Assembly (NCBI RefSeq): GCF_003018255.1
Contig: NZ_CP027440.1
From: Escherichia coli
Lineage (GTDB): Bacteria > Pseudomonadota > Gammaproteobacteria > Enterobacterales > Enterobacteriaceae
Reading direction: 5' to 3' (one strand)
Length of the DNA: 64,000 nt
Position numbers and translations under genes: made by a program. Below are positions 19,791-64,000 of the stretch, one piece after another. How positions within the stretch are numbered: position 1 is the first letter of the stretch; each line of letters opens with the position of its first letter. The notes beneath the pieces are model-generated. The model was not told the DNA's origin. It did no database searches and saw only the letters and a program-made list of their open reading frames with translations.

Positions 19791-19798
19791 TTCCCCCA

Positions 19799-20044: not shown

Positions 20045-20265
20045 TTTCTTCTCATCACATAAAAAAACGGCGCTAGTTTACGCCCTGTGAGTCCGTAAGC
20101 AAACCAGGTTAACGATTGCGTGAAAATTAACCATTGCATTGTCAACGTAAAGCAGTATCATGCGGCGGCTCGAAAAAAGGGTCAGCACGTTATTATGTTA
20201 AGGTAGCAGACGTGTCGTACGTATTGGGTTCCCTCACCCCAATGGTTAATCAAAAAAGGTACAAT

Positions 20266-20931: not shown

Positions 20932-21003
20932 AGGTTCGTTATCAGAGTTGTGATAAGATGGATGAATGAGCCGTTATGGCCGTTTATCGAAAGGAAGAAG
21001 TCA

Positions 21004-21561
21004 ATGCGCAATCTGGTTAAATATGTCGGAATTGGCCTGCTGGTTATGGGGCTTGCGGCCTGTGATGATAAAGACACTAACGCTACGGCGCAGGGTTCGG
21101 TCGCAGAAAGTAACGCGACCGGGAATCCCGTCAACCTGCTTGATGGCAAGTTAAGTTTCTCGCTGCCAGCGGATATGACCGACCAGAGCGGTAAGCTGGG
21201 AACGCAGGCCAATAACATGCATGTCTGGTCCGACGCCACCGGGCAGAAAGCAGTCATCGTCATCATGGGCGATGATCCGAAAGAAGATCTGGCGGTGCTG
21301 GCGAAGCGTCTGGAAGATCAGCAACGTAGCCGCGATCCGCAGCTGCAAGTGGTAACCAATAAAGCCATTGAGCTGAAAGGTCACAAAATGCAGCAGTTAG
21401 ACAGCATTATCTCCGCGAAAGGCCAGACGGCGTACTCTTCCGTTATTCTGGGTAACGTGGGTAATCAACTGCTAACCATGCAAATTACGCTGCCCGCTGA
21501 CAATCAGCAAAAAGCACAGACCACCGCAGAAAACATCATTAATACGCTGGTTATTCAGTAA
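21004..21561 (+). CDS. dcrB: Periplasmic lipoprotein DcrB
   Basis: Start at [20 protein letters not shown] (lipobox), 185 aa. Confidence 0.85.
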
Positions 21562-21564
21562 GTT

Positions 21565-44055: not shown

Positions 44056-44065
44056 TAAAAAAGGC

Positions 44066-44097
44066 TTCAGATAAGGCGTTGGACGCCTTATCTGGTT
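44066..44097. terminator. Palindromic hairpin between convergent yhiM and yhiN (REP-like, bidirectional terminator)
   Basis: cagataaggcgttggacgccttatctgg perfect inverted repeat. Confidence 0.5.
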
Positions 44098-44141
44098 TTA
44101 TTCAGGTTAATCCCTCTGGTATCGAGAGCACATTTTGCTTC

Positions 44142-45335
44142 TTATTCTGCCACCAAATCCTGCGCACAAGCCCATGCACTCGACCACGCCCACTGGAAGT
44201 TATAGCCCCCCAGCCAGCCGGTGACGTCCATCACTTCGCCGATGAAGTACAGCCCAGGCACTTTGCGCGCTTCCATCGTCCGTGAAGAGAGTTCGTTGGT
44301 GTCCACGCCGCCGAGCGTCACTTCGGCAGTGCGATAGCCTTCAGTGCCGTTGGGTTGTACGCGCCAGTCGGTCAATGTGCTAATCAGTGCCTGTTGGTCA
44401 CGCACGTTGAGCTGTTTTAGCGAAACATCCGGGATTTGCCCGAGTTGTTGTAAACGTTCAACCAACCGCTTCGGTAGATGAACCGCCAGTGTGTTTTTCA
44501 GGCTCTGATTCGGATGTGCATTACGCTGCTCATTCAGGAAGGTTTCGAGGTCCACATCCGGTAGCAGATTGATACTGACAAATTCACCCGGTTGCCAGTA
44601 GCTGGAAATTTGCAACACCGCCGGTCCAGATAAGCCGCGGTGGGTGAAGAGTAAGTTCTCACGGAAAACGATGCCGTTTTCAGCGGTAATCACGGAAGGC
44701 ACCGCCACGCCCGCCAGCACCTGTAACTCTTCGAGCAACGGTTTATGCAGAGTGAATGGCACCAGGCCCGCGCGGGTCGGCAGCACGTTGAGGCCAAATT
44801 GTTCGGCAATCTTATAACCAAACGGCGACGCGCCCAGCCCTGGCATTGACAGTCCACCGGTCGCGATGACCAGCTTTTCGCAACCGGCAGTCATGCCGTT
44901 CAGTTCAAGCGTGAAGCCTGTTTCATCCTTCGCCACACTCAGCACTTCGCTACGCAATCTGAAGGTCACATTGCCCTTCTCGCACTCATCCACCAGCATG
45001 TCGACAATCTGCTGCGCGGAGTCATCGCAGAAGAGTTGCCCTAACGTTTTCTCGTGCCAGGTGATGCCGTGTTTATTGACCAGATCAATGAAATCCCACT
45101 GGGTAAAACGCGCGAGTGCAGACTTACAAAAATGCGGATTCTGGCTCAGATAAGCGCCCGGTTCGACATAAAGGTTGGTAAAGTTGCAGCGCCCACCGCC
45201 AGACATGAGGATTTTGCGCCCTGGTTTTTTACCATTATCGATCAGCAGAACCCGGCGTCCTGCCTGACCTGCCAGCGCAGAACAGAACATACCCGCCGCA
45301 CCAGCGCCTATAATAATGGCATCAAACCTTTCCAC
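44142..45335 (-). CDS. yhiN: FAD-dependent flavoprotein YhiN
   Basis: 397 aa; N-terminal GAGAAG dinucleotide-binding motif. Confidence 0.85.
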   Translation of the reverse strand: MERFDAIIIGAGAAGMFCSALAGQAGRRVLLIDNGKKPGRKILMSGGGRCNFTNLYVEPGAYLSQNPHFCKSALARFTQWDFIDLVNKHGITWHEKTLGQLFCDDSAQQIVDMLVDECEKGNVTFRLRSEVLSVAKDETGFTLELNGMTAGCEKLVIATGGLSMPGLGASPFGYKIAEQFGLNVLPTRAGLVPFTLHKPLLEELQVLAGVAVPSVITAENGIVFRENLLFTHRGLSGPAVLQISSYWQPGEFVSINLLPDVDLETFLNEQRNAHPNQSLKNTLAVHLPKRLVERLQQLGQIPDVSLKQLNVRDQQALISTLTDWRVQPNGTEGYRTAEVTLGGVDTNELSSRTMEARKVPGLYFIGEVMDVTGWLGGYNFQWAWSSAWACAQDLVAE

Positions 45336-45566
45336 GTTGCGCTCCTCTAAGAAAAAACGGGCGTGAATTGTAAAGATTCCTCAGTGGTCGCACCAGCATC
45401 AATATTACTAAAAGGAAGTATTTACCTGAATTATATAAGATAATTATTTTTTGAGTGAAATCCATACAGGAGGCAAATCAAAAAAAGTCTATATTTCACT
45501 TTGCCCGCGCCGCGAAAGTCACTGATAATGCGCCGCGTTCATGTCCTCAAAATGGCGTAACGTCCT

Positions 45567-47066
45567 ATGCTACATTTGTTTGCTGGCCTGGATTTGCATA
45601 CCGGGCTGTTATTATTGCTTGCACTGGCTTTTGTGCTGTTCTACGAAGCCATCAATGGTTTCCATGACACAGCCAACGCCGTGGCAACCGTTATCTATAC
45701 CCGCGCGATGCGTTCTCAGCTCGCCGTGGTTATGGCGGCGGTGTTCAACTTTTTGGGTGTTTTGCTGGGTGGTCTGAGTGTTGCCTATGCCATTGTGCAT
45801 ATGCTGCCGACGGATCTGCTGCTTAATATGGGATCGTCTCATGGCCTTGCCATGGTGTTCTCTATGTTGCTGGCGGCGATTATCTGGAACCTGGGTACCT
45901 GGTACTTTGGTTTACCTGCATCCAGCTCTCATACGCTGATTGGCGCGATCATCGGGATTGGTTTAACCAATGCGTTGATGACCGGGACGTCAGTGGTGGA
46001 TGCACTCAATATCCCGAAAGTATTAAGTATTTTCGGTTCTCTGATCGTTTCCCCTATTGTCGGCCTGGTGTTTGCTGGCGGTCTGATTTTCTTGCTGCGT
46101 CGCTACTGGAGCGGCACCAAGAAACGCGCCCGTATCCACCTGACCCCAGCGGAGCGTGAAAAGAAAGACGGCAAGAAAAAGCCGCCGTTCTGGACGCGTA
46201 TTGCGCTGATCCTTTCCGCTATCGGCGTGGCGTTTTCGCATGGCGCGAACGATGGTCAGAAAGGCATTGGTCTGGTTATGTTGGTATTGATTGGTGTCGC
46301 ACCAGCAGGCTTCGTGGTGAACATGAATGCCACTGGCTACGAAATCACCCGTACCCGTGATGCCATCAACAACGTCGAAGCTTACTTTGAGCAGCATCCT
46401 GCGCTGCTGAAACAAGCGACCGGTGCTGATCAGTTAGTACCGGCTCCGGAAGCTGGCGCAACGCAACCTGCGGAGTTCCATTGCCATCCGTCGAATACCA
46501 TTAACGCGCTCAACCGCCTGAAAGGCATGTTGACTACCGATGTGGAAAGCTACGATAAGCTGTCGCTTGATCAACGTAGCCAGATGCGCCGCATTATGCT
46601 GTGCGTTTCTGACACTATCGACAAAGTGGTGAAGATGCCTGGCGTGAGTGCTGACGATCAGCGCCTGTTGAAGAAACTGAAGTCTGACATGCTTAGCACC
46701 ATCGAGTATGCACCGGTGTGGATCATCATGGCGGTCGCGCTGGCGTTAGGTATCGGTACGATGATTGGCTGGCGTCGTGTGGCAACGACTATCGGTGAGA
46801 AAATCGGTAAGAAAGGCATGACCTACGCTCAGGGAATGTCTGCCCAGATGACGGCGGCAGTGTCTATCGGCCTGGCAAGTTATACCGGGATGCCGGTTTC
46901 CACTACTCACGTACTCTCCTCTTCTGTCGCGGGGACGATGGTGGTAGATGGCGGCGGCTTACAGCGTAAAACCGTAACCAGTATTCTGATGGCCTGGGTG
47001 TTTACCCTTCCGGCTGCGGTACTGCTTTCCGGCGGGCTGTACTGGCTCTCCTTGCAGTTCCTGTAA
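45567..47066 (+). CDS. pitA: Low-affinity inorganic phosphate transporter PitA
   Basis: 499 aa, multi-[10 protein letters not shown] motif. Confidence 0.93.
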
Positions 47067-47081
47067 TTGTACGCACCAAAA

Positions 47082-47114
47082 CGAGCGGGTCAGTTTACTG
47101 GCCCGCTTTTTTTA
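47082..47114 (+). terminator. Rho-independent terminator after pitA
   Basis: agcgggtcagtttactggcccgct hairpin followed by a T7 run. Confidence 0.75.
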
Positions 47115-47136
47115 TGCGTCATTATTGCTGAAGTGC

Positions 47137-47472
47137 TTAATGCCAAATCATCAATGCAATCAGGCTGACCACCACCAGACCACACAATGCGCTGGTCAGA
47201 ATAAACTGCCGACGCACCCGCTCACAGCGGCGAATAAACTCATCATCGTGATGATCGCGATAACGTTGGGCATAGATATACCAAACGAGACGCACCTGTT
47301 TGTTGGGTTGGCCATGTGAGGTAAAAAAGCCCCCTCCATCAACATATTGATAGAGCAATGGATCGCAGTTACGCAGTACCACTAACAACGCGCGTAGTGA
47401 TGAGAAATAGCGCGCCATGTTAACAATGCAAACGACACATAAAGCCCAAAATAATGCGACGGTGCTTATCAT
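47137..47472 (-). CDS. uspB: Universal stress protein B
   Basis: 111 aa, two TM helices. Confidence 0.9.
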
Positions 47473-47862
47473 ACCTCCTCCCCGGCGACCTGCCCGCGGA
47501 GTTCCACCCCGGGGCTACCGCTCCCGATACGCTGCCAATCAGTTAACACCAGGTCCTGGAGAAACCGCTTTTGTGGTGACCAACATCCGAGCGGCTCTAT
47601 AGATAGTGTAGGAGATCAGGTTGTTTTTTTTCCAGAAGGTTAACCACTATCAATATATTCATGTCGAAAATTTGTTTATCTAACGAGTAAGCAAGGCGGA
47701 TTGACGGATCATCCGGGTCGCTATAAGGTAAGGATGGTCTTAACACTGAATCTTTACGGCTGGGTTAGCCCCGCGCACGTAGTTCGCAGGACGCGGGTGA
47801 CGTAACGGCACAAGAAACGCTAGCTGGCCAGTCATCGACAACTTTATGGAAGGAGTAACACT

Positions 47863-48297
47863 ATGGCTTATAAACACATTCTCATCGCGGTCGACCTCTC
47901 CCCGGAAAGCAAAGTTCTGGTAGAGAAAGCAGTCTCTATGGCTCGCCCCTATAATGCGAAAGTTTCTCTGATCCACGTAGATGTAAACTACTCTGACCTA
48001 TACACCGGGCTTATTGATGTGAATCTGGGTGATATGCAGAAACGCATCTCTGAAGAGACACATCATGCGCTGACCGAGCTTTCCACTAATGCAGGCTACC
48101 CAATCACTGAAACCCTGAGCGGCAGCGGCGACCTGGGCCAGGTTCTGGTCGATGCAATCAAGAAATACGATATGGATTTGGTGGTTTGTGGTCACCACCA
48201 GGACTTCTGGAGCAAACTGATGTCTTCCGCACGTCAGCTGATCAACACCGTTCACGTTGATATGCTGATTGTTCCGCTGCGCGACGAAGAAGAATAA
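47863..48297 (+). CDS. uspA: Universal stress protein A
   Basis: 144 aa, [39 protein letters not shown]. Confidence 0.95.
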
Positions 48298-48321
48298 TCT
48301 TCCCTCTACGACGTGTTCCTG

Positions 48322-48352
48322 AACGCCCGCATATGCGGGCGTTTTGCTTTTT
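48322..48352 (+). terminator. Rho-independent terminator after uspA
   Basis: cgcccgcatatgcgggcg hairpin followed by ttttgcttttt. Confidence 0.8.
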
Positions 48353-48612
48353 GGCGCGCCTTGTTACCTTGCAGCGTAAACACCTTATCTGGCCTACGGT
48401 CTGCGTACGCAATCAAAATCCCCTGCCAATACAACATTTAACACCATCATATTTTCCATCATTAGTGTGATCAGCTGGTTATTTTCTGTTGTAATAGTGT
48501 ATCAATCTATTCACCGCATCAATATTAAGAATCTCTGACAGATGTAAACTTTTTCGCGCGTTATCCCTTACGCGTTCATACTTTTCAGGATGGTATTGGA
48601 AGGTTAATAAAT

Positions 48613-50082
48613 ATGAATACAACAACACCCATGGGGATGCTGCAGCAACCTCGCCCATTTTTCATGATCTTTTTTGTCGAGTTATGGGAGCGATTCGGCT
48701 ACTACGGCGTGCAGGGCGTACTGGCGGTTTTCTTCGTTAAGCAGCTTGGATTCTCGCAAGAACAGGCTTTTGTCACTTTTGGTGCTTTTGCTGCGCTGGT
48801 CTATGGCCTCATTTCCATTGGCGGCTATGTCGGCGACCACCTGCTGGGGACCAAACGCACCATTGTTCTCGGAGCACTTGTGCTGGCGATTGGCTACTTC
48901 ATGACCGGCCTGTCGCTACTTAAGCCTGACCTGATTTTCATCGCCCTGGGGACTATCGCTGTCGGTAACGGCCTGTTTAAAGCTAACCCAGCCAGCTTGC
49001 TTTCGAAGTGCTATCCGCCGAAAGATCCGCGGCTTGATGGCGCATTTACCCTGTTCTATATGTCGATCAACATCGGCTCGTTGATAGCGTTATCGCTGGC
49101 CCCTGTGATCGCTGATAGATTCGGCTATTCAGTCACCTACAACCTGTGCGGTGCGGGATTAATTATCGCGCTATTGGTTTACATCGCCTGTCGCGGAATG
49201 GTGAAAGACATTGGTTCTGAACCCGACTTCCGGCCGATGAGCTTCAGCAAACTGTTGTACGTGTTACTTGGCAGCGTGGTGATGATCTTCGTCTGTGCAT
49301 GGCTGATGCACAACGTAGAAGTCGCCAATCTGGTGCTGATTGTTCTCTCCATCGTCGTCACCATCATTTTCTTTCGTCAGGCATTCAAGCTGGATAAAAC
49401 CGGGCGCAATAAAATGTTTGTCGCCTTTGTCCTGATGCTCGAAGCGGTGGTGTTTTACATTCTCTACGCCCAGATGCCAACGTCGCTGAACTTCTTTGCT
49501 ATCAACAACGTGCATCATGAAATTCTCGGTTTTTCCATCAACCCAGTCAGCTTCCAGGCGCTTAACCCGTTCTGGGTGGTACTCGCCAGCCCAATACTGG
49601 CAGGCATTTACACGCATCTGGGTAACAAAGGCAAAGACCTCTCGATGCCGATGAAATTTACTCTCGGCATGTTTATGTGCTCGCTGGGCTTTCTTACAGC
49701 CGCCGCTGCGGGAATGTGGTTTGCGGATGCACAAGGACTGACATCGCCGTGGTTTATCGTGCTGGTTTACTTGTTCCAGAGCCTGGGTGAATTGTTTATT
49801 AGCGCCCTGGGTCTGGCGATGATTGCTGCCCTGGTGCCGCAGCATTTGATGGGCTTTATTCTCGGGATGTGGTTCCTGACGCAGGCTGCCGCGTTCTTGC
49901 TGGGCGGCTATGTGGCAACATTTACCGCAGTACCAGACAACATTACCGATCCGCTTGAGACGTTGCCCGTCTATACCAACGTGTTTGGTAAGATTGGCCT
50001 GGTTACGCTGGGCGTTGCGGTGGTGATGCTGCTGATGGTGCCGTGGCTGAAACGCATGATTGCGACGCCCGAAAGCCATTAA
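48613..50082 (+). CDS. dtpB: Proton-dependent di/tripeptide transporter DtpB (POT family)
   Basis: 489 aa, multi-TM, ERFGYYG POT motif. Confidence 0.9.
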
Positions 50083-50092
50083 TTATTCTTGC

Positions 50093-50121
50093 AGAAAGCA
50101 GGGTAGCGATAACGCTACCCT
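50093..50121. terminator. Hairpin between convergent dtpB and rsmJ (bidirectional terminator)
   Basis: aagcagggtagcgataacgctaccctgcttt inverted repeat. Confidence 0.6.
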
Positions 50122-50130
50122 GCTTTACTT

Positions 50131-50883
50131 TTACACCGGCGTTCCGGCATAAATATCAAAGCGATGCCCTTTGGTCACTACCGCGTTTGGCGTGGCGACA
50201 TTCGCCAGCGGCGGCGCGTAGTCCGGGCGCTTTACCACCACGCGTTTGGTCGCCAGCAAGCGTGCAGGCTCCAGCAATCCATCGGCATCAAGATCCGGCC
50301 CCACCAGCGACTGAAAGACACGCATCTCTTTTTTCACCAACGCGCTTTTCTGCTTATGCGGGAACATCGGATCGAGATAGACAACCTGCGGGCGCGGAGT
50401 AATATCGGTCAGCGCCGTCAGGCTGGAAGCGTGAATTAACTGCAACCGCTCCTGCAACCAGCCGCCGATTTCCGCATCCGCATAACCACGCGCCAGGCCG
50501 TCGTCGAGCAATGCAGCAACCACCGGATTACGCTCCAGCATCCGCACGCGGCAGCCGACCGAAGCCAGCACAAAGGCATCGCGCCCCAGCCCTGCGGTGG
50601 CGTCCACCACATCCGGCAAATAATCGCCTTTAATGCCCACCGCTTTCGCCACCGCCTCTCCGCGACCACCGCCGAATTTGCGTCGGTGCGCCATCGCCCC
50701 GCCAACAAAATCAACAAAGATGCCGCCCAGCTTCGGCTCATCACGCTTGCGCAGTTCCAGGTGCTCCGGTGTTAACACCAGCGCCATCAGGTTGTCTTCA
50801 TCGTGCTCCAGCCCCCAGCGGGCCGCCAGAACAGATAAGGCGCCGTCTCCGGCGCCTGTTTCATCAATTAAGCAGATTTTCAC
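50131..50883 (-). CDS. rsmJ: 16S rRNA m2G1516 methyltransferase RsmJ
   Basis: GTG start giving (M)[13 protein letters not shown], 250 aa. Confidence 0.85.
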
Positions 50884-50890
50884 TGAATGT

Positions 50891-52933
50891 TCAGCCCTTA
50901 ATGCCGTAATGCTCCAGCATCGCATCCAGCTGTGGTTCACGACCACGGAAGCGTTTGAACAGCTCCATCGGCTCTTCTGAACCGCCACGGATCAGAATGT
51001 TGTCGAGGAACGACTGCCCAGTTTCACGGTTGAAAATGCCCTCTTCCTCAAAACGCGAGAAGGCATCTGCCGCCAGCACGTCGGCCCACAGGTAGCTGTA
51101 GTAACCTGCGGCATAACCACCGGCGAAAATATGGCTGAAAGCGTGCGGGAAACGGCCCCAGGATGGAGACGGTACTACGGCAACCAGTTTCTTGATTTCT
51201 GCCAGAGTTTCGAGGATTTTCGCTCCCTGATCCGGGCGGAACTCGGCATGGAGGCGGAAATCAAACAGGCCGAACTCCAGTTGGCGCAGAATAAACAGCG
51301 CCGCCTGGTAGTTCTTAGCCGCCAGCATTTTATCCAGCAGCTCCTTCGGCAGCGGTTCGCCGGTTTCATAGTGACCGGAGATAAACGCCAGCGCCTCCGG
51401 CTCCCAGCACCAGTTTTCCATAAACTGACTCGGCAGTTCGACCGCATCCCACGGCACCCCGCTGATACCAGATACACCAGCAGTTTCAATGCGGGTCAGC
51501 ATATGGTGCAGGCCGTGACCGAATTCATGGAACAGGGTGATCACTTCGTCATGGGTAAACAGTGCCGGTTTACCATTTACCGGGCGGTTGAAGTTACAGG
51601 TCAGATACGCGACCGGTTTTTGCAGCGAACCGTCGGCTTTACGCATCTGGCCTACGCAGTCATCCATCCACGCCCCGCCGCGCTTGTTTTCACGGGCATA
51701 CAGGTCGAGGTAGAAGCTGCCGCGCAGTTCGTTGTTCTCGTCATACAGTTCGAAGAAACGTACATCCGGATGCCAGACATCAACATCTTTACGCTCTTTA
51801 GCGGTGATGCCGTAAATACGTTTCACCACTTCAAACAAGCCGTTAACCGCTTTGTTTTCCGGGAAGTACGGACGCAGCTGTTCGTCACTGATGCTGTAGA
51901 GATGCTGTTTTTGTTTTTCGCTGTAGTAAGCGATATCCCACGGCTGCAACTCATCGACGCCAAATTCGGCTTTAGCGAAGGCACGCAGTTGCGCCAGCTC
52001 TTTTTCACCTTGCGGACGCGCGCGTTTTGCCAGATCGGTTAAGAAATCAAGCACCTGCTGCGGATTTTCTGCCATTTTAGTGGCAAGGGATTTAAAGGCG
52101 TAGTTTTCAAAACCCAGCAGTTGCGCCAGTTCGTGACGCAGCGCGAGGATCTCTTCCATCACCTTGCTGTTGTCCCACTTACCGGCGTTCGGGCCTTGAT
52201 CGGAAGCGCGGGTGCTGTAAGCACGATACATCTCTTCACGCAAGGCCTGGTTGTCGCAGTAAGTCATTACCGGCAAGTAGCTTGGGATATCCAGCGTCAG
52301 CAAATAACCTTCCAGCTCTTTCGCTTCAGCCTGGGCTTTTGCCGCAGCCAGTGCGCTTTCTGGCATTCCTGCCAGTTCCGCTTCGTCGGTAACGAGTTTG
52401 GTCCAGCCCATTGTCGCATCGAGGACGTTGTTGCTGTACTGGTTGCCCAGCTCGGAAAGACGGGTGGCAATCTCACCGTAGCGTTGTTGTTTCTCTTTTG
52501 GCAGACCGATGCCAGAGAGTTCGAAGTCGCGCAGTGCGTTATCAACCGCTTTTTTCTGCGCCGTGTTCAGCGTGGCGTAATGATCGCCATCGCGCAGGTC
52601 GCGATACGCTTTATACAGCCCTTCATGTTGCCCTACCCAGGTGCTGTATTCTGACAGCAGCGGCAGGGTTTGTTCGTACGCTTCACGCAGTTCCGGGCTA
52701 TTTTTCACCGAGTTCAGGTGGCTGACCGGGGAGAAGATACGCCCCAGCACATCGTCTACTTCTGCCAACGGCTGGCAGAGATTTTCCCAGGTGTACGGTG
52801 CCCCTTGCGCTACTACGCGCTCCACGTTTTCGCGGCAGTCATTCAGCGCCTTAGTCACGGCTGGAACGACATGTTCCGGGAGAATTTTAGAAAACGGAGG
52901 CAATTCAAAGGGAGTCAGTAACGGATTCGTCAT
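50891..52933 (-). CDS. prlC: Oligopeptidase A (M3 family zinc metallopeptidase)
   Basis: Start at [17 protein letters not shown], 680 aa, HEFGH zinc-binding motif. Confidence 0.93.
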
Positions 52934-53135
52934 TAGCGCAGTCCTGGTTAAAGAGGTTAAGGAAGCGCTCAACAGGCGCTTTACATAATGTGTGTAGCAT
53001 GGGGTTAAGTGTAGTGAATTTCAATGAGAAACGTTACGCTTTCGCGGCGGCGGCCTCTTTTCGGTATACTGTCCTGATAGGCTTTTGTGCGCCCCGAATA
53101 CGGGCCGATTTTTACTTACCGGAACACCTTTACCC

Positions 53136-53978
53136 ATGCTCAGTTATCGCCACAGCTTTCACGCTGGCAACCACGCCGACGTCCTTAAACATACCGTTCA
53201 GAGCCTGATCATCGAGTCGCTGAAAGAGAAAGATAAACCGTTTCTCTATCTCGACACCCACGCAGGGGCCGGGCGTTATCAGTTAAGCAGCGAACATGCC
53301 GAGCGTACCGGCGAATATCTCGAAGGTATCGCCCGTATCTGGCAGCAGGACGATTTGCCTGCGGAGCTGGAGGCGTACATCAATGTGGTAAAACACTTCA
53401 ACCGTAGCGGGCAGTTGCGTTATTACCCCGGTTCGCCGTTGATTGCTCGCCAGCTACTGCGTGAACAGGACAGCCTGCAACTGACCGAGCTGCACCCGAG
53501 CGATTACCCGTTGCTGCGTTCTGAATTTCAGAAAGACAGCCGTGCGCGCGTCGAAAAAGCCGACGGTTTCCAGCAGCTTAAGGCCAAGCTGCCGCCGGTT
53601 TCCCGCCGTGGTTTAATCCTTATCGACCCGCCGTATGAAATGAAAACCGACTATCAGGCGGTGGTCAGCGGGATAGCAGAAGGTTACAAACGTTTCGCCA
53701 CTGGCACTTACGCATTGTGGTATCCAGTGGTGCTGCGCCAGCAAATTAAGCGCATGATCCACGACCTGGAAGCGACCGGCATTCGCAAAATTCTGCAAAT
53801 TGAACTGGCGGTGCTGCCAGACAGCGATCGCCGTGGCATGACCGCTTCCGGCATGATTGTGATTAATCCGCCGTGGAAGCTGGAACAGCAGATGAATAAC
53901 GTGCTGCCGTGGCTGCACAGCAAACTGGTTCCAGCTGGCACTGGGCACGCCACCGTAAGCTGGATCGTGCCGGAGTAA
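53136..53978 (+). CDS. rlmJ: 23S rRNA m6A2030 methyltransferase RlmJ
   Basis: Start at MLSYRHSFHAGNHADVLKH, 280 aa, DPPY motif. Confidence 0.88.
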   Translation: MLSYRHSFHAGNHADVLKHTVQSLIIESLKEKDKPFLYLDTHAGAGRYQLSSEHAERTGEYLEGIARIWQQDDLPAELEAYINVVKHFNRSGQLRYYPGSPLIARQLLREQDSLQLTELHPSDYPLLRSEFQKDSRARVEKADGFQQLKAKLPPVSRRGLILIDPPYEMKTDYQAVVSGIAEGYKRFATGTYALWYPVVLRQQIKRMIHDLEATGIRKILQIELAVLPDSDRRGMTASGMIVINPPWKLEQQMNNVLPWLHSKLVPAGTGHATVSWIVPE

Positions 53979-54049
53979 TTGCAGCCATCGCTGGCACCTA
54001 TTACGTCTCGCGCTACAATCGCGGTAATCAACGATAAGGACAATATGTC

Positions 54050-55402
54050 ATGACTAAACACTATGATTACATCGCCATCGGCGGCGGCAGCGGCGGTATC
54101 GCCTCCATCAACCGCGCGGCTATGTACGGTCAGAAATGCGCGCTGATTGAAGCCAAAGAACTGGGCGGCACCTGCGTGAACGTCGGCTGCGTGCCGAAAA
54201 AAGTGATGTGGCACGCGGCGCAAATCCGTGAAGCGATCCACATGTACGGTCCGGATTATGGTTTCGATACCACTATCAATAAATTCAACTGGGAAACGTT
54301 GATCGCCAGCCGTACCGCCTATATCGACCGTATTCATACTTCCTATGAAAACGTGCTCGGTAAAAATAACGTTGATGTAATCAAAGGCTTTGCCCGCTTC
54401 GTTGATGCCAAAACGCTGGAGGTAAACGGCGAAACCATCACGGCCGATCATATTCTGATCGCCACCGGCGGTCGTCCGAGCCACCCGGATATTCCAGGCG
54501 TGGAATACGGTATTGATTCTGATGGCTTCTTCGCCCTTCCTGCTTTGCCAGAGCGCGTGGCGGTTGTTGGCGCAGGTTACATCGCCGTGGAACTGGCGGG
54601 CGTGATTAACGGCCTCGGCGCGAAAACGCATCTGTTTGTGCGTAAACATGCGCCGCTGCGCAGCTTCGACCCGATGATCTCTGAAACGCTGGTCGAAGTG
54701 ATGAACGCCGAAGGCCCGCAGTTGCATACCAACGCCATCCCGAAAGCAGTAGTGAAAAATGCTGATGGTAGCCTGACGCTGGAGCTGGAAGATGGGCGCA
54801 GTGAAACGGTGGATTGCCTGATTTGGGCGATTGGTCGCGAGCCTGCCAATGACAACATCAACCTGGAAGCCGCTGGCGTTAAAACTAACGAAAAAGGCTA
54901 TATCGTCGTCGATAAATATCAAAATACCAACGTTGAAGGTATTTACGCGGTGGGCGATAACACGGGTGCAGTGGAACTGACACCGGTGGCAGTTGCAGCG
55001 GGTCGCCGTCTCTCTGAACGCCTGTTTAATAACAAGCCGGATGAGCATCTGGATTACAGCAACATTCCGACCGTGGTCTTCAGCCATCCGCCGATTGGGA
55101 CTGTTGGTTTAACGGAACCGCAGGCGCGCGAGCAGTACGGCGACGATCAGGTGAAAGTGTATAAATCCTCTTTCACCGCGATGTATACCGCCGTCACCAC
55201 TCACCGCCAGCCGTGCCGCATGAAACTGGTATGCGTTGGACCGGAAGAGAAGATTGTCGGAATTCACGGCATTGGTTTTGGTATGGATGAAATGTTGCAG
55301 GGCTTCGCGGTGGCGCTGAAGATGGGCGCAACCAAAAAAGACTTCGACAACACGGTTGCCATTCACCCGACAGCGGCAGAAGAGTTCGTGACAATGCGTT
55401 AA
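54050..55402 (+). CDS. gor: Glutathione reductase
   Basis: 450 aa, GGGSGG FAD-binding motif and CVNVGC redox-active disulfide. Confidence 0.95.
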
Positions 55403-55408
55403 ATGTTA

Positions 55409-55440
55409 AAGGGCTAAGAGTAGTGTGCTCTTAGCCCTTA
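55409..55440. terminator. Hairpin between convergent gor and dinQ
   Basis: aagggctaagag-tagtgtg-ctcttagccctt perfect stem-loop. Confidence 0.55.
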
Positions 55441-55455
55441 GCTACGTTTCCGCTA

Positions 55456-55539
55456 TCAGTTCAGAAGCTGAAGCAGAAAGCGGATCAGTTCCAGCAGCGC
55501 AATTAACGCCCCAAGAACGATGATTGCTTTATCAATCAC
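55456..55539 (-). CDS. dinQ: DinQ small membrane toxic peptide (type I toxin, SOS-regulated)
   Basis: Minus-strand GTG-initiated 27-codon ORF encoding VIDKAIIVLGALIALLELIRFLLQLLN; LexA box upstream; agr repeats nearby. Confidence 0.7.
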   Translation of the reverse strand: MIDKAIIVLGALIALLELIRFLLQLLN

Positions 55540-55732
55540 CCGTTTTCTCCATGCGATGGAGTGAGAATGCATCCGCTTACTCATCCACTGCCTGTCACGG
55601 CGCATGCCCCATTGTTAGATGTGGGCATTCTCACTCCGGCCAGAGCATCAGTTAACGGCACCACCCGTACTTCTGACCAGGACTTTGAAAGCGTTTATGC
55701 GCATTGCCAGAGTGAAAATGTCTCAGAGCTAA

Positions 55733-55748
55733 CTGGATAATCATACAG
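55733..55748 (-). promoter_or_regulatory. LexA box in the dinQ promoter
   Basis: Minus-strand CTGTATGATTATCCAG (CTGT-N8-CCAG, one mismatch to the CTGT-N8-ACAG consensus). Confidence 0.6.
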
Positions 55749-55809
55749 TACTTGCGGGTTATAAAACCAGCATGTCCTTGCAATAGTTTCAGTATGGTAT
55801 TAGCATTGA

Positions 55810-55895
55810 TGCGTTAGATGATGGCTATCTCACTCCAGTCAGAGCCACCAACTCAGGGCTGGAAAGTAAAAAACCGACGCAAAGTCGGTTTTTTA
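55810..55895 (+). ncRNA. agrA: agrA small RNA (dinQ antisense-type regulator), approximate bounds
   Basis: Repeat copy complementary to the dinQ 5' UTR segment (gtgggcattctcactccggccagagc) ending in the terminator ccgacgcaaagtcgg plus T-run. Confidence 0.5.
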
Positions 55896-56042
55896 CATCC
55901 GGATTCGGACAAGGCCTGGTACGGCAGCGACCCGATGAAAGTATATAAATCCTCTTTCACCAACATGTATAGCAAACTGTCCCTCCGCCAGCTGAAGAAA
56001 TCGCTAACGCTTGCAATGTTAGCCACTGGCTAATAGTATTGA

Positions 56043-56128
56043 ACCGTTAGATGTGGGCATTCTCACTCCAGCCAGAGCCACCAACTCAGGGCTGGAAAGT
56101 AAAAAACCGACGCAAAGTCGGTTTTTTT
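56043..56128 (+). ncRNA. agrB: agrB small RNA (DinQ translation antitoxin RNA), approximate bounds
   Basis: Second repeat copy ttagatgtgggcattctcactccagccagagccaccaactcagggctggaaag plus identical terminator hairpin and T7 run. Confidence 0.5.
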
Positions 56129-56280
56129 ACGTCCTGATTCAGACCTCCTTTCAAATGAATACCCAACTCAAAATTCACACCTATTACCTTCCTCTGCACT
56201 TACACATTCGTTAAACCATATGTGTTTTTGACTTATCCGCTTCGAAGAGAGACACTACCTGCAACAATCAGGAGCGCAAT

Positions 56281-56634
56281 ATGTCATTTCTGTTACCCAT
56301 TCAACTGTTCAAAATTCTTGCTGATGAGACCCGTCTGGGCATCGTTTTACTGCTTAGCGAACTGGGAGAGTTATGCGTCTGCGATCTCTGCACTGCCCTC
56401 GATCAGTCGCAGCCCAAGATATCCCGCCATCTGTCATTGCTGCGTGAAAGTGGGCTATTGCTGGATCGCAAGCAAGGTAAGTGGGTTCATTACCGCTTAT
56501 CACCGCATATTCCAGCATGGGCGGCGAAAATTATTGATGAGGCCTGGCGATGTGAACAGGAAAAGGTTCAGGTGATTGTCCGCAACCTGGCTCGACAAAA
56601 TTGTTCCGCAGACAGTAAGAACATTTGCAGTTAA
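56281..56634 (+). CDS. arsR: Arsenical resistance operon repressor ArsR
   Basis: 117 aa, ELCVCDL As(III)-binding motif in the HTH region. Confidence 0.93.
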   Translation: MSFLLPIQLFKILADETRLGIVLLLSELGELCVCDLCTALDQSQPKISRHLSLLRESGLLLDRKQGKWVHYRLSPHIPAWAAKIIDEAWRCEQEKVQVIVRNLARQNCSADSKNICS

Positions 56635-56688
56635 AAAATTTAGCTAAACACATATGTATTTTCGCATGTGTTTTATCCGGGAGGCATT

Positions 56689-57978
56689 ATGTTACTGGCA
56701 GGCGCTATCTTTGTCCTGACCATTGTATTGGTTATCTGGCAGCCGAAAGGTTTAGGCATCGGCTGGAGTGCAACGCTCGGCGCAGTACTGGCGTTAGTTA
56801 CGGGCGTGGTCCATCCGGGTGATATTCCGGTGGTGTGGAATATCGTCTGGAACGCGACGGCGGCGTTTATTGCCGTCATTATCATCAGCCTGCTGCTGGA
56901 TGAGTCCGGCTTTTTTGAATGGGCGGCGCTGCACGTCTCACGCTGGGGCAATGGACGCGGTCGCTTGCTGTTCACCTGGATTGTCCTGCTCGGTGCTGCC
57001 GTTGCAGCTCTGTTTGCCAATGATGGCGCGGCGCTTATTTTGACACCGATTGTCATCGCCATGTTGCTGGCTTTAGGGTTCAGTAAAGGCACTACGCTGG
57101 CGTTCGTGATGGCGGCCGGATTCATTGCCGATACCGCCAGCCTGCCGCTTATTGTCTCCAACCTGGTGAATATCGTTTCCGCAGATTTCTTTGGCCTCGG
57201 CTTTCGCGAATACGCATCGGTGATGGTGCCGGTGGATATCGCCGCAATTGTTGCCACGCTGGTGATTTTGCATCTCTATTTCCGCAAAGATATTCCGCAG
57301 AACTACGATATGGCGCTGCTGAAATCTCCCGCAGAAGCGATTAAAGATCCTGCCACCTTCAAAACTGGCTGGGTTGTTTTACTGTTTCTGCTGGTGGGAT
57401 TTTTCGTCCTGGAACCGCTCGGCATTCCGGTCAGCGCCATTGCGGCAGTGGGCGCGTTGATATTATTTGTCGTCGCTAAACGCGGTCATGCGATTAATAC
57501 GAGTAAGGTGCTACGCGGTGCGCCCTGGCAGATTGTCATCTTCTCGCTCGGCATGTATCTGGTGGTTTATGGCCTGCGCAATGCCGGACTAACGGAATAT
57601 CTTTCTGGCGTACTCAACGTGCTGGCGGATAATGGCCTGTGGGCCGCGACGCTCGGCACCGGATTCCTCACCGCCTTCCTCTCTTCTATTATGAACAATA
57701 TGCCGACGGTACTGGTTGGCGCGTTGTCCATTGATGGCAGCACGGCATCTGGCGTTATCAAAGAAGCGATGGTTTATGCCAACGTAATTGGCTGCGATTT
57801 GGGGCCGAAAATTACCCCGATTGGTAGCCTGGCGACGCTGCTCTGGCTGCACGTACTTTCGCAGAAGAATATGACTATCAGCTGGGGATATTACTTCCGT
57901 ACAGGGATTATCATGACCCTGCCTGTGCTGTTTGTGACGCTGACTGCGCTGGCGCTACGTCTCTCTTTCACTTTGTAA
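56689..57978 (+). CDS. arsB: Arsenite efflux pump ArsB
   Basis: Start at [22 protein letters not shown], 429 aa, multi-TM. Confidence 0.92.
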
Positions 57979-57990
57979 TGAGATATTGAT

Positions 57991-58416
57991 ATGAGCAACA
58001 TTACCATTTATCACAACCCGGCCTGCGGCACGTCGCGTAACACGCTGGAGATGATCCGCAACAGCGGCACAGAACCGACCATTGTCTATTATCTGGAAAC
58101 CCCACCGACGCGTGATGAACTGGTCAAACTCATTGCCGATATGGGGATTTCCGTACGCGCGCTGCTGCGTAAAAACGTCGAGCCGTATGAGGAACTGGGC
58201 CTTGCAGAAGATAAATTTACTGACGATCGGTTAATCGACTTTATGCTTCAGCACCCGATTCTGATTAATCGCCCGATTGTGGTGACGCCGTTGGGAACTC
58301 GCCTGTGCCGCCCTTCAGAAGTCGTGCTGGAAATTCTGCCAGATGCGCAACAAGGCGCGTTCACCAAGGAAGATGGCGAGAAAGTGGTTGATGAAGCGGG
58401 TAAACGCTTGAAATAA
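57991..58416 (+). CDS. arsC: Arsenate reductase ArsC (glutaredoxin-coupled)
   Basis: 141 aa, MSNITIYHNPACGTSRN catalytic Cys motif. Confidence 0.93.
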   Translation: MSNITIYHNPACGTSRNTLEMIRNSGTEPTIVYYLETPPTRDELVKLIADMGISVRALLRKNVEPYEELGLAEDKFTDDRLIDFMLQHPILINRPIVVTPLGTRLCRPSEVVLEILPDAQQGAFTKEDGEKVVDEAGKRLK

Positions 58417-58454
58417 AGCGGCGATATCCACTGCCCATAGTTGGTAAAGTGCGC

Positions 58455-58505
58455 TTTGTTTATGTCGGATGCGACGCTAACGCGTCTTATCCGACCTACA
58501 AAACC
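58455..58505. repeat. REP element
   Basis: tgtcggatgcgacgctaacgcgtcttatccgacctaca. Confidence 0.7.
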
Positions 58506-58538
58506 GTGCATGGCATGAAATCTGTAGCGCGTAGCGCA

Positions 58539-58835
58539 TCAGGCAATTTTGCTATTTACGCAGCACTCCTCGCGTAAGAATTCAATTATCGCTTCCAGCA
58601 TTGCGTATTGCGAAACACACATCAGCGTTCGACTCTCACGGTTTTGTTTGACCAGCCCTACCGATACCAGTGCTGAAATATGGTGACTGAGTGTAGAGCC
58701 GGGTATCCCAAGCTGCTTTTGCAACTCACCGACCGGCAACCCTTGTTCCCCGGCTTTGACAAGATGTTTAAATATGAACAAACGGGTCGGGTGACCTAGC
58801 TCTTTCAGCGCTTTAGCGACTTCTTCCAACTGCAT
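58539..58835 (-). CDS. ArsR/SmtB-family transcriptional regulator with a C-terminal Cys cluster
   Basis: 98 aa from MQLEEVAKALKELGHPTRLFIFKHL (winged HTH); lacks the CVC motif but has C-terminal MCVS ... REECC cysteines; strong Shine-Dalgarno; divergent from the permease. Confidence 0.7.
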   Translation of the reverse strand: MQLEEVAKALKELGHPTRLFIFKHLVKAGEQGLPVGELQKQLGIPGSTLSHHISALVSVGLVKQNRESRTLMCVSQYAMLEAIIEFLREECCVNSKIA

Positions 58836-58941
58836 ATGATCCCCCTCTGTCTGGTTGATATTTCGATAATACCAGAAATATCTTGATCTGAATTTCATTT
58901 CGATTATTCTGGAAATATAGATTTATTCAATGAGGTTATGT

Positions 58942-59943
58942 ATGAGTAGTTGGCTTGCGATGCTGCAAGATGCCACAGAGATGTTTGTGTTTCTCGCCGT
59001 CGAGCTTTCTTTGCTGTTTATAGTGATTAGTGCCGGTGTGAGCCTGATAAGACAAAAGGTGCCAGACCATAAAATCCAGCAGATGATGGGGGCAAGAAAA
59101 GGGAAAGGCTATCTCCTGGCTGCTCTGTTGGGAGCCGTCACCCCGTTCTGTAGTTGCTCGACAATCCCTATGTTACGTGGATTGTTATCAGCGAAAGCCG
59201 GGTTTGGTCCGACCCTCACTTTTTTATTTGTTTCCCCATTACTTAATCCCATTATCGTCGGGTTAATGTGGGTGACCTTTGGCTGGAAAGTTACCTTGTT
59301 GTATGCGATTATCGCCGCCGGCGTCTCCGTACTTGCCAGTATTATCCTCGATTCTCTGGGATTTGAACGTCATATCATTGCCAGTAAAAGCTCATCAGCA
59401 AATTGTTGTGCTCCAGCCAAAACTTCGCCGGGGACGACATATACGCCAATAAAAGTGAGTTGCTGTAGTCCAGCGGCTAAAGCCATTGAGAAACCTGTAG
59501 TAAACTGTTGCAGTACCAAAGCTGTGGTAAGTATTAATCCCATAAAACTAGCCACCAAAGATGCGTTGCAACAGTTTAAAGATGTACTGCCATATCTTTT
59601 GTTAGGGGTATTAATAGGCTCTTTTATTTATGGCTTTATTCCCTCAGAGTGGATTGCCGCTCATGCAGGGGCAGATAATCCCTTCGCCATCCCATTGAGC
59701 GCCGTTGTCGGTATTCCGCTATATATCCGGGCAGAGGCGGTTATCCCTCTGGCATCTGTTCTGATGACAAAAGGAATGGGTCTGGGAGCATTAATGGCAT
59801 TAATCATCGGCAGTGCCGGCGCAAGCCTGACGGAAGTGATATTACTTAAATCAATGTTCAGAATACCGATGATAGTTGCATTCCTGACGGTTATATTAGG
59901 TATGGCTATCTTGATGGGCTATTTGACTCAAATGCTATTTTAA
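58942..59943 (+). CDS. ArsP-like permease (COG0701/DUF318) with TPFCSCS motif and Cys-rich loop
   Basis: About 333 aa, multi-TM; VTPFCSCSTIPMLRG motif typical of ArsP-type organoarsenical permeases; central loop CCAPAKTSP ... VSCCSPAAK ... VNCCSTK. Confidence 0.6.
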   Translation: MSSWLAMLQDATEMFVFLAVELSLLFIVISAGVSLIRQKVPDHKIQQMMGARKGKGYLLAALLGAVTPFCSCSTIPMLRGLLSAKAGFGPTLTFLFVSPLLNPIIVGLMWVTFGWKVTLLYAIIAAGVSVLASIILDSLGFERHIIASKSSSANCCAPAKTSPGTTYTPIKVSCCSPAAKAIEKPVVNCCSTKAVVSINPIKLATKDALQQFKDVLPYLLLGVLIGSFIYGFIPSEWIAAHAGADNPFAIPLSAVVGIPLYIRAEAVIPLASVLMTKGMGLGALMALIIGSAGASLTEVILLKSMFRIPMIVAFLTVILGMAILMGYLTQMLF

Positions 59944-60523
59944 ATAGATGCCAGCAGTAAACTATAAGGAGCATTGTGAGTGCCTTATCCTTCTGAGTAG
60001 AAAATCATAGATAGGATAATCCTTAAAAATCACAAATAACTTAACTAATGCTTTGAGAATGATGACGGATCCGTCAGTAAGTTATCAATCGACAATCACC
60101 ACGCAATCATGCTTCTCTGACATTTTATCGGAGAAGCAATGTCTCTTTGTTTCAGTGCTATCCCCCCTTTTAAAGGGCAGATTTCAGTCGCCAATACAAC
60201 ACATTTTTAAATACACTTTAACCTGGTTCATTATTACACATCTAAAACATCACAAAAATATCACTTCACACACTATCGGTGAACATCATAACTTTTTAAA
60301 ATGAGCGCTTTTTGATAGTTGTTAACGTTTTCCTTTACGATACTATCACTGCCCTTTTTTTATACACAAATATTACCGGGTGGAAATGAAAGGGAAGTTA
60401 AAGGTAATTATATCAGGAAGATATGACGCATTGTGTTTATTTCCGCGTAGAAGAAAATCCATTCCTGCTCTAATTCTCCGATTTACAAAAATTTAGCGAA
60501 ATAGATGAACAATAAGGAATGTT

Positions 60524-61747
60524 ATGTCAATTGACTTTACCCCATGTATGATAAATACATATCACGGCGATATTTATAACCGCACAACAGATACCGACAA
60601 TGTTAAAACACCAGACACACCGAAGTGGCCTTGCGATAATTGGGAAGAACAACAACCCATTAATTCCACATTCTCTGGAGAAGGATATACCTCTGATCAA
60701 TATGATTTAGCGCAATACCAACTTCAACAAATTAATGCGTGCCACACGAACACTACATATACAAATGCAGACTACTCAAAAGTTGTGGCTCAACTTGTAA
60801 GTCTTATTACTAACATTGAAACGATAAGTTCGACACAACTTACGCAACAGACACAATCAATACTTAATCAGATTAATAACATTAGATACGAAAAAAACAA
60901 AAGTGCTGAATATCGAATCATTGTTGTCGCTAATCCTAAACCCGACAAGGCAATCATAACTAAAATTAGCGTAGAAGAGGGAATACCAGTAAGATTCAGT
61001 GTCCAAACCATGTTTTCAGATACTAATTTTATTACTGAACAACGAGCTGACTTACCGACTAATATAAAAGATATTCAAAGCCTGTATCAAAAAATGACGA
61101 AGTTATATATTGAACACAGTGAAAATAAAAACAGGATGAAAGTCTTTGCTGGAACCAACTTTATTGATTTCAATGTGACAGGACAGGACCTTTCCGGGTT
61201 CGTTCTAACCTTGTCAAGGTTTTATTTCGAAGATCTACTTAATATAAATTTCACTGACGCAAATTTAGGTGACACTATTTTTTCACATAAAGAACACCCT
61301 ACCCCAAAATTATATAAAGACGAACAATATCTTGACAAACAAATCGAAGGTTTATTTTCAACATTATTAACCATTAATGACAACTTTTTACGAGCAAAAG
61401 CGGAAATTGCTTCGACAATAATTAAATTCTTAGAGGCCAGGATAACCAATATTTCATACAATGACATATTAAAATATCAGCAAGAATTCAAAAAACAATG
61501 TTATAAGCAAGTTAAAGCCTTTACGACACTCTCCCGATACAATAAAATTCAAACATGGGCAGAAATGTCTGAATATCAATTCGAAGTATTTCAATACGAG
61601 ACGCTTAACCCAAAAAAAATGTCATACGCACCTTATTTAAAGAGATCGCTACCTGATGAAAAAACTATAAATTATGGGGTGGAAATAGAAACACCAACTG
61701 GCAAAAGAATTCGCTTATTAAATCATTACCAGAATATAATCCCATAA
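60524..61747 (+). CDS. yhiS: YhiS-like protein, apparently intact (uncharacterised, AT-rich, pentapeptide-repeat-like segment)
   Basis: 407-aa uninterrupted ORF between ars and slp; low GC; periodic segment [35 protein letters not shown]. Confidence 0.6.
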
Positions 61748-61992
61748 TATTGAACATTAGCACTTTATAATCATTGAATAAAAATAGATTTTATGTACCT
61801 TTAAAAAAAGGCTATTTTATGGGGCGATGGATACTCATGTCACGCCCCAAAATTAACAGAATTAAACTAAACAGAAGGGATATAAACATCAGACAGGTTT
61901 ACGTTACTATCAGGCATATCGCCTCAGAATCAGATGAAAACTATAAAGAAATATCTATTATGGTTTTAATATTTGTTGATAAGGATAGTAAC

Positions 61993-62559
61993 ATGAACAT
62001 GACAAAAGGTGCACTCATCCTCAGCCTTTCATTTTTGCTTGCCGCATGTAGTTCAATTCCGCAAAATATCAAAGGCAATAACCAACCTGATATTCAAAAA
62101 AGTTTTGTTGCTGTTCATAACCAGCCGGGGTTATATGTTGGTCAACAAGCGCGCTTTGGCGGGAAGGTTATCAACGTTATCAATGGCAAAACGGATACGT
62201 TGTTAGAAATCGCTGTATTACCGTTGGATAGCTATGCGAAGCCTGATATTGAAGCCAACTATCAGGGCCGACTGCTCGCCAGACAAAGCGGCTTCCTTGA
62301 TCCAGTGAACTATCGTAATCACTTTGTTACCATCCTCGGTACCATTCAGGGTGAACAACCTGGCTTTATCAATAAAGTCCCGTATAACTTCCTGGAAGTG
62401 AATATGCAGGGCATCCAGGTGTGGCATTTGAGAGAAGTGGTTAATACCACCTATAACCTGTGGGATTACGGCTATGGTGCATTCTGGCCGGAACCGGGCT
62501 GGGGCGCGCCTTACTACACCAATGCGGTGAGTCAAGTAACACCTGAGCTGGTCAAATAA
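61993..62559 (+). CDS. slp: Starvation-inducible outer membrane lipoprotein Slp
   Basis: Start at MNMTKGALILSLSFLLAAC (lipobox), 188 aa. Confidence 0.9.
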   Translation: MNMTKGALILSLSFLLAACSSIPQNIKGNNQPDIQKSFVAVHNQPGLYVGQQARFGGKVINVINGKTDTLLEIAVLPLDSYAKPDIEANYQGRLLARQSGFLDPVNYRNHFVTILGTIQGEQPGFINKVPYNFLEVNMQGIQVWHLREVVNTTYNLWDYGYGAFWPEPGWGAPYYTNAVSQVTPELVK

Positions 62560-62711
62560 CACCACCGAGAGATGCAGATGCTTTCTCAGCATCTGCATCA
62601 TGCATTACATCAAATTAATACACAGCCAGCTAACTATTATTATAAGCCCTGTCCTGTTAATTACCTTTGGCAAACTGATTATAAAGTTAATGTCCGCACC
62701 AGGAGTCGGTT

Positions 62712-63242
62712 ATGTTTCTTATAATTACCAGGGATACGATGTTCTTCACTGCGATGAAAAACATTCTGAGTAAAGGTAATGTCGTTCATATACAGAACGA
62801 AGAAGAGATCGACGTAATGTTGCATCAGCATGCCTTCGTCATTATTGATACATTAATGAATAATGTATTTCATTCTAATTTGCTCACTCAGATTGAACGA
62901 TTAAAACCTGTCCATGTGATTATTTTCTCTCCCTTTAATATTAAACGCTGCCTGGGGAAAGTACCGGTGACCTTTGTTCCGCGAACTATCACCATCATCG
63001 ACTTTGTCGCACTCATCAATGGCAGTTACTGCTCTGTGCCTGAAGCGGATGTGTCCCTTTCGCGCAAGCAGCATCAGGTTCTGAGCTGCATTGCGAATCA
63101 AATGACAACGGAAGATATTCTGGAGAAACTGAAAATATCGCTAAAAACGTTCTACTGCCATAAACACAATATCATGATGATCCTCAATCTTAAGCGGATC
63201 AATGAGTTGGTACGCCATCAGCATATTGATTATCTGGTGTGA
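62712..63242 (+). CDS. dctR: LuxR-family regulator DctR (YhiF)
   Basis: 176 aa with C-terminal LuxR-type HTH; position after slp. Confidence 0.8.
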   Translation: MFLIITRDTMFFTAMKNILSKGNVVHIQNEEEIDVMLHQHAFVIIDTLMNNVFHSNLLTQIERLKPVHVIIFSPFNIKRCLGKVPVTFVPRTITIIDFVALINGSYCSVPEADVSLSRKQHQVLSCIANQMTTEDILEKLKISLKTFYCHKHNIMMILNLKRINELVRHQHIDYLV

Positions 63243-63302
63243 ACGATTGATCAATATAAAGAGGCCCAGCAATAAATAGCCAGACCTCCCGTTAATTATA
63301 CG

Positions 63303-64000
63303 TTATGCAGTAACGACTTCCGGTATCAGCGAAGCAATTTGCTTACGCCATTGCGCTTGCTCCTGTTCGCCTTCTGTACGTTGACCATAAAGTTGCGCTA
63401 TCTGCGTACCATCATGGGCAAACAATTCCAGACTGGTTACGTAGCCATCGCTGGTCGGTTTACGGGTAACCCAGGCTTCAGCAATGCTCTCTTCTAATAG
63501 ATGAAGAGTAAACGTCGGGTTGAAAATATTCAGCCAACCTTTCATTGGCACCACTTTTTCTACCACACCAGTGAAAATCTGTACGCAGCCACGGTTGCCA
63601 ACAAACACCATGATTTCATTGCCATCCTGCTGTGCAGATTCAAGAATTTGCGCCAACGCACTGTTGGATACTTTGCAGGCCAAATCATCTGCCACCAGAT
63701 TGAACGCCTGTTGGCGCGTCAGGTTGTGGCGCTTGAGCAACGTAAAAAACTGATGAACGTCGGTCATCGCCCGCCACTCTTGCTCGACCACACTGGCATC
63801 GGCTCGCGTTTGAACAACTGGCGCATCAACGGCTTTTAACTCAAGCGGCATATTCTCATCGGCGATAAACCGTGCCAGAAGCTCACTCCATGCCGCCATA
63901 TCGGTATTGTCGGTGGCATAAACTTTTAGTAATGCATCGCCCTGATGATCAAAGAACTGAATACTCTGGCGTTCGCCACGAGTCGTATTTTCTTTAATGT
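63303..64000 (-). CDS. chuS: Haem-degrading/utilisation protein ChuS (HemS family), C-terminal part; 5' end beyond window
   Basis: Frame is open to the window edge; product FFDHQGDALLKVYATDNTDMAAWSELLARF ... resembles ChuS/HemS/ShuS; position after dctR as in chu-positive E. coli. Confidence 0.6.
   Translation of the reverse strand, partial: IKENTTRGERQSIQFFDHQGDALLKVYATDNTDMAAWSELLARFIADENMPLELKAVDAPVVQTRADASVVEQEWRAMTDVHQFFTLLKRHNLTRQQAFNLVADDLACKVSNSALAQILESAQQDGNEIMVFVGNRGCVQIFTGVVEKVVPMKGWLNIFNPTFTLHLLEESIAEAWVTRKPTSDGYVTSLELFAHDGTQIAQLYGQRTEGEQEQAQWRKQIASLIPEVVTA

Follow-up and report, generated by a model that had tools for sequence, protein, structure and literature searches.

The 64,000-nucleotide stretch of Escherichia coli DNA analysed here (hereafter, the window) ends inside a reading frame that lies just beyond dctR. 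Two questions are raised by this locus: (i) which gene is cut by the edge of the window, and to what larger locus it belongs; and (ii) in what lineage of E. coli it is found. The answer given here, to which a probability of about 0.97 is assigned, is that the window ends in chuS, at the left edge of the approximately 9-kb chu (shu) haem-utilisation locus located between dctR and yhiD, in a chu-positive E. coli. The rest of the locus (chuA and chuTWXYU-hmuV) would lie past the window edge in the source genome, to judge from its relatives, since the window stops inside chuS (at codon 112). This is the textbook position of chu; it is already known, and no new biology is involved. The features of this region are collected in Table 1.

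Table 1. Features at the right end of the window (positions are counted from its first base).
Feature	Position	Strand	Basis and remarks
slp, outer-membrane lipoprotein gene	61993..62559	plus	Pfam Slp (E=8.9e-42); annotated in JNE23-011 and K-12
dctR (yhiF), LuxR/GerE-type regulator, acid fitness island	62712..63242	plus	ORF list; Pfam GerE (E=2.8e-9); annotated as dctR in JNE23-011 and K-12
dctR/chuS spacer (60 bp), left end of the chu-specific DNA	63243..63302		Comparison with K-12
Predicted stem-loop directly 3' of chuS	63259..63290	minus	12 pairs (including 4 G-U), 8-nt loop, then UUUAUAUU (U-rich run)
chuS, 3' part	63303..64000	minus	Codons 112-342 plus the TAA stop codon (63305-63303); translation, Pfam, PDB, ChuS of JNE23-011

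The chuS fragment and its product

The 3' two-thirds of chuS take up the final 698 bases of the window. According to the ORF list and the translation, a minus-strand reading frame of 231 codons is open from the window edge to its TAA stop codon; the gene runs past the end of the window, and its N-terminal 111 codons fall outside it. The first-pass annotation had described this last gene as ChuS/HemS-like, a name that was to stand or fall with the match to HemS-family profiles, and both the name and the match were borne out. In the profile search, Pfam HemS (PF05171) matches the fragment in two stretches with 180.8 bits (cut-off 24; E=1.3e-53), and the ChuS structures of E. coli O157:H7 in the PDB (4CDP and 1U9T) match it at E~1e-148 and about 97% identity, well outside what chance would give. 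The Pfam ChuX_HutX profile also matches the fragment (E=2e-38); for its part, NCBIfam is without a ChuS-specific HMM, and its HutX match is sub-threshold (35.6 bits vs a cut-off of 110).

In E. coli JNE23-011, ChuS is annotated with 342 residues; the fragment coincides with its C-terminal part without any difference, which places it at residues 112-342 of the protein. Of the tandem HemS domains, the C-terminal one lies entirely within the window, and the N-terminal one is represented by its last part only; in JNE23-011, whose allele is identical, the protein has its full length of 342 residues. The fragment retains His193 (fragment position 82), which is the axial haem ligand of ChuS, in a sequence context identical to that of 4CDP, together with Phe127, Tyr138, Phe304 and Tyr315, whose roles are taken from the same source (PMC6018153). 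Another residue pair, Arg29/Arg209, taken from a review, was set aside: it disagrees with the numbering of the fragment and of the identical stretch of 4CDP.

As regards the function of the product, the published literature suggests that ChuS, through its tandem HemS domains and with His193 as ligand, would degrade haem aerobically and in this way release its iron. Haem binding and degradation have been reported for the 97%-identical ChuS of O157:H7 (PMC6018153). The breakdown is coupled to H2O2 and its products are hematinic acid, a tripyrrole and Fe(III); under anaerobic conditions, haem is handled by ChuW and ChuY (PMC6018153, PMC9002310). The in vivo role of ChuS is debated, and the following roles have been considered: (i) oxygenase; (ii) haem chaperone; and (iii) protection against oxidative stress (PMC6018153). 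Among the alternatives to the explanation given here, the one that survives best is related to this debate: ChuS could be, like PhuS, mainly a cytoplasmic haem shuttle or a haem/peroxide protectant, and not an iron-freeing enzyme. PhuS is a member of the same family and a shuttle; besides, haem cleavage by ChuS is driven by H2O2, and in vivo genetic proof of it is missing (PMC6018153). Nevertheless, ChuS degrades haem in vitro with multiple turnovers, using either ascorbate or CPR/NADPH, to hematinic acid, tripyrrole and Fe3+, and its haem pocket is tighter than that of PhuS or HemS (PMC6018153). A main role as shuttle or protectant is considered rather improbable, and ChuS as the enzyme that would free iron from haem is the preferred reading; the sequence itself is neutral in this matter.

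The dctR/chuS junction and the chu locus in related genomes

In this region, the site of chu insertion is flanked on the left by dctR, which is conserved, and slp, which precedes dctR, is the gene with which the acid fitness island begins by definition (PMC9144400). Since dctR is located on the plus strand, and chuS on the minus strand with its end at 63303, both genes are convergent: their stop codons are 60 bp apart and chuS points towards dctR, so that the initial description of chuS as transcribed away from dctR was wrong. Homology to K-12 (95-97% identity) ends at 63242/63243, directly after the TGA of dctR. In an alignment of the window, IAI39, APEC O78:H4 and K-12, this left breakpoint is the same in all three chu-positive sequences.

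The stem-loop predicted in the spacer folds, as minus-strand RNA, with -20.5 kcal/mol (z=-3.05 vs shuffles), while the plus-strand fold is weak (z=-1.2). According to this prediction, it is likely to be the intrinsic terminator of the chuAS transcript. A consensus promoter/terminator scan of the dctR/chuS spacer flagged nothing, the stem-loop included.

The gene order of K-12 MG1655 is slp, dctR, yhiD, hdeB, hdeA and hdeD, with yhiD 41 bp after dctR, which agrees with the first-pass annotation, where yhiD/hdeBAD directly follow dctR in K-12. In JNE23-011, the following blocks are found instead: (i) slp and dctR; (ii) chuS and chuA, both pointing towards dctR; (iii) chuT, chuW (hutW), chuX (hutX), chuY, chuU and hmuV, on the same strand as dctR; and (iv) yhiD, hdeB and hdeA, again on the opposite strand. 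Both IAI39 (phylogroup F) and APEC O78:H4 E14033 share this order. The proposal to look for a chuA divergent from chuS had, then, misdescribed the locus: chuA is co-directional with chuS and upstream of it (chuAS is bicistronic; PMC9002310), and it is the chuT operon that diverges from chuA.

Given that homology to K-12 is lost after the TGA of dctR and comes back near the stop codon of yhiD (in JNE23-011, it resumes at CAGATTAGCTAA, five bases before that stop codon), a 9,060-bp chuS-chuA / chuTWXYU-hmuV segment stands in JNE23-011 in place of the 37-bp spacer of K-12. The left junction lies within the window; for the right junction, at yhiD, the relatives are the only source. In the literature, an acid fitness island of about 22 kb is described for EDL933-like strains, where it includes chuSA and chuTWXYU, and one of about 13 kb for MG1655 (PMC9144400). 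Regarding island ends and mobility signatures, no integrase, IS element or tRNA is annotated in the 9-kb segment, whose GC content (50.3%) falls between that of the AT-rich flanks of the acid island (about 43%) and the mean of the window (52%). The sole repeat-like feature near both ends of the segment, as read by eye, is AATAAATA, which is likely a product of chance.

The 37-bp spacer of K-12 (L002 9215-9251) presents, in reverse complement, a 15/17 gapped match to positions 63277-63292 of the window, within the stem of the predicted terminator. A p value of about 0.0025 was obtained with shuffles for that one of four comparisons. When the spacer is compared with the island, two 9-mer matches appear, about two being expected, and one of them is the inverted match itself. 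This match may have arisen by chance or may be a scar from a deletion of chu; as a reading of the sequence, it is quite unlikely that the dctR/yhiD spacer of K-12 is an inverted scar of the spacer on the chu side. If it were, the sequence would offer direct evidence that phylogroups A, B1 and C lost an ancestral chu locus, their empty site being a product of deletion and not the state before insertion.

With the complete gene set of these relatives, the locus would provide, as described in the published literature, a route from external haem to cytoplasmic iron: (i) ChuA, a TonB-dependent outer-membrane receptor, would import haem (Plug and beta-barrel domains are found in the ChuA protein of JNE23-011); (ii) ChuT and ChuU/HmuV would carry it across the periplasm and the inner membrane to the cytoplasm; and (iii) ChuW, ChuX and ChuY would be the anaerobic counterpart for the task of ChuS. 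In this scheme, chuS would be the promoter-distal gene of a chuA-chuS operon repressed by Fur. Two Fur-box-like sites are present in the chuA-chuT spacer of JNE23-011, at L001 19153-19171 (2 mismatches) and 19505-19523 (3 mismatches), where 0 are expected by chance. In this proxy genome, one such site is located 290 nt upstream of the ATG of chuA, a position that fits the published chuA 5'UTR of 291 nt (PMC9002310).

The population distribution of the locus was determined in a collection of 5,426 complete genomes, all of them labelled as E. coli. With a minimum of 80% present, the slp-dctR-chuS segment, which contains the dctR-chuS junction, is found in 2,232 genomes (about 41%), and the whole 9.15-kb locus, flanks included, in 2,234. 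In the remaining genomes, just two flanks of about 45 bp match, some 128 bp apart, as in the empty site of the K-12 type. The similarity between the junction and full-locus counts indicates that partial loci are rare: in practice, the site is either occupied by the full locus or empty, and the whole locus can be expected wherever the chuS end is found.

These counts bear on a second alternative, according to which the chuS fragment is a remnant, and chu is partial past the edge or disrupted there, whether by deletion, by an IS element or through a pseudogene, the strain not being functionally chu-positive. It is true that the window ends before the rest of the locus, and that inactivating changes occur elsewhere, such as a TGG>TAG change vs JNE23-011 in an Rhs ORF of the window and the frameshift of yhiS in JNE23-011. 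But the 231 visible codons are intact and identical to ChuS of JNE23-011, the nearest genomes carry complete loci and, in the 5,426 genomes, the two counts given above for the junction and the locus (2,232 and 2,234) are almost equal. A remnant is, for these reasons, very improbable, and a chu locus that would continue complete past the edge is the reading retained here.

Lineage of the source genome and accessory features of the window

The complete genome nearest to the window is that of JNE23-011, with 100% identity over positions 61500-64000, 99.9% over 39001-64000 and 99.75% over the first 50 kb; JNE112863 is also 99.9% identical over 25 kb, and the next-closest genomes are those of avian and human E. 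coli. Over positions 44000-64000, identity amounts to 99.92% for JNE23-011, 98.89% for APEC O78:H4 (phylogroup G), 97.09% for IAI39 (F) and 95.41% for K-12 (A). JNE23-011 is not the source genome itself, as 126 differences separate it from the window within the first 50 kb. Of these differences, 81 are clustered at about 18000-22000 (zntA-tusA-yhhQ), in what resembles a short recombination tract; this cluster at 18-22 kb indicates that local recombination occurs in the lineage.

The gene chuA is a classical phylotyping marker associated with virulence. Phylogroup typing, which had been recommended as a check, was carried out in silico on JNE23-011 as a proxy, by applying the Clermont scheme with the EzClermont primers (PMC7656184) for the markers chuA, arpA, yjaA and ybgD. 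The following results were obtained for this genome: (i) chuA gives a 288-bp product (the window itself shows chuS only); (ii) arpA is absent, as the primer site in aceK is present with no ArpA1_r site, and aceK and iclR are 16 bp apart; (iii) yjaA is absent, with no yjaA primer sites and with rrf and yjaB 125 bp apart; and (iv) the G-specific marker ybgD is present, with exact primer matches at L007 23708 and 23865-23884 that result in a 177-bp product. The profile of JNE23-011 (chuA+, arpA-, yjaA-, ybgD+) is that of phylogroup G. By way of this nearest complete genome, the source genome probably belongs to phylogroup G as well. The first-pass annotation had argued for a chu-positive, non-K-12 lineage of E. 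coli, and the chuS fragment, the junction and the relatives with the full locus support it: the background is chu-positive and most likely of phylogroup G, with O78:H4 avian-pathogenic strains among its nearest neighbours.

IS-rich decay is typical of Shigella genomes, and this part of the window shows no sign of it. A third alternative, that the window comes from Shigella dysenteriae or another Shigella with the homologous shu locus and not from E. coli proper, may look suggestive because shu is homologous to chu (PMC9002310), PGAP names such as shuT and shuU are used for some chu genes of JNE23-011, and the comparison collection was limited to genomes labelled as E. coli, but it is hardly credible in view of the 99.9% identity over 25 kb to the E. 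coli genomes JNE23-011 and JNE112863, followed by those of avian and human E. coli.

Given the lineage of the window, chu-positive and most likely of phylogroup G, K-12 is a poor reference for accessory calls in it. In this respect, chu, a pair of genes of the ArsR-family/ArsP-like type and an intact yhiS, all of them absent from K-12, are common to the reference strains of phylogroups F and G, and are to be regarded as lineage background and not as recent acquisitions. The said pair is divergent, lies between arsC and yhiS at 58539-59943 (in an insert of about 58609-60204) and replaces about 96 bp of K-12. One of its genes encodes an ArsR/SmtB-family regulator (minus strand) and the other a permease of the ArsP_1 family (PF03773, E=1.6e-52) in which a Cys-rich loop is present. 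The pair also occurs in IAI39 (F) and APEC O78:H4, and for this reason counts as lineage background; next to arsRBC, it may serve as an additional module for the efflux of metalloids or organoarsenicals. The yhiS homologue (60524-61747, plus strand) is an intact 407-codon ORF, while the K-12 copy is split by IS5 and that of JNE23-011 is annotated as frameshifted; this homologue has no Pfam or NCBIfam match.

Other features were observed in the window. The main Rhs ORF (30241-34158, plus strand) carries its TGG>TAG change at 34157 with respect to rhsC of JNE23-011, so that it ends at codon 1306 of 1397 and the C-terminal tip is lost; it is followed by transposase genes of the ISEc1/ISAs1 family, at about 35.4-37.2 kb. 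Two tandem antisense sRNAs of the AgrB family (Rfam RF02891, 101 and 108 bits) are found at 55814-55897 and 56047-56130 (plus strand), where they adjoin the dinQ toxin gene, like agrA/agrB in K-12. Finally, a pair formed by a Phd/YefM antitoxin and a Doc toxin is located at about 3093-3688 (minus strand), between ugpB and livF, according to the annotation of JNE23-011; this pair is probably accessory relative to K-12.

Comparison with known haem-utilisation systems

The closest known system is the chu locus of E. coli O157:H7 EDL933 (chuAS, chuTWXY and chuUV), which occupies the same position, right after dctR, in an enlarged acid fitness island, and whose architecture matches that of the nearest relatives of the window. 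The gene is the same: identity between the fragment and the ChuS structures of O157:H7 is about 97%, with five or six amino-acid differences in the visible part, the C-terminal tail included. When the whole locus of JNE23-011 is considered, O157-like chu loci present an allelic difference only (about 97.3% identity), and just 13 records are at least 99% identical to it. The shu locus of Shigella dysenteriae (shuA, shuS, shuT, shuW, shuX, shuY, shuU and shuV) is homologous and has the same gene set (PMC9002310), in a different host lineage.

At a greater distance, two proteins share the tandem-HemS fold family with ChuS: (i) HemS of Yersinia enterocolitica, whose structures 2J0P and 2J0R match the fragment at E~1e-97; and (ii) PhuS of Pseudomonas aeruginosa, whose structures 4MF9 and 4IMH match it at E~2e-50. 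Both are homologues from other genera, and not the same gene as chuS. The axial histidine is conserved in ChuS, HemS and PhuS, but PhuS differs in the geometry of its pocket and in that it acts as a shuttle which delivers haem to a separate oxygenase (PMC6018153).
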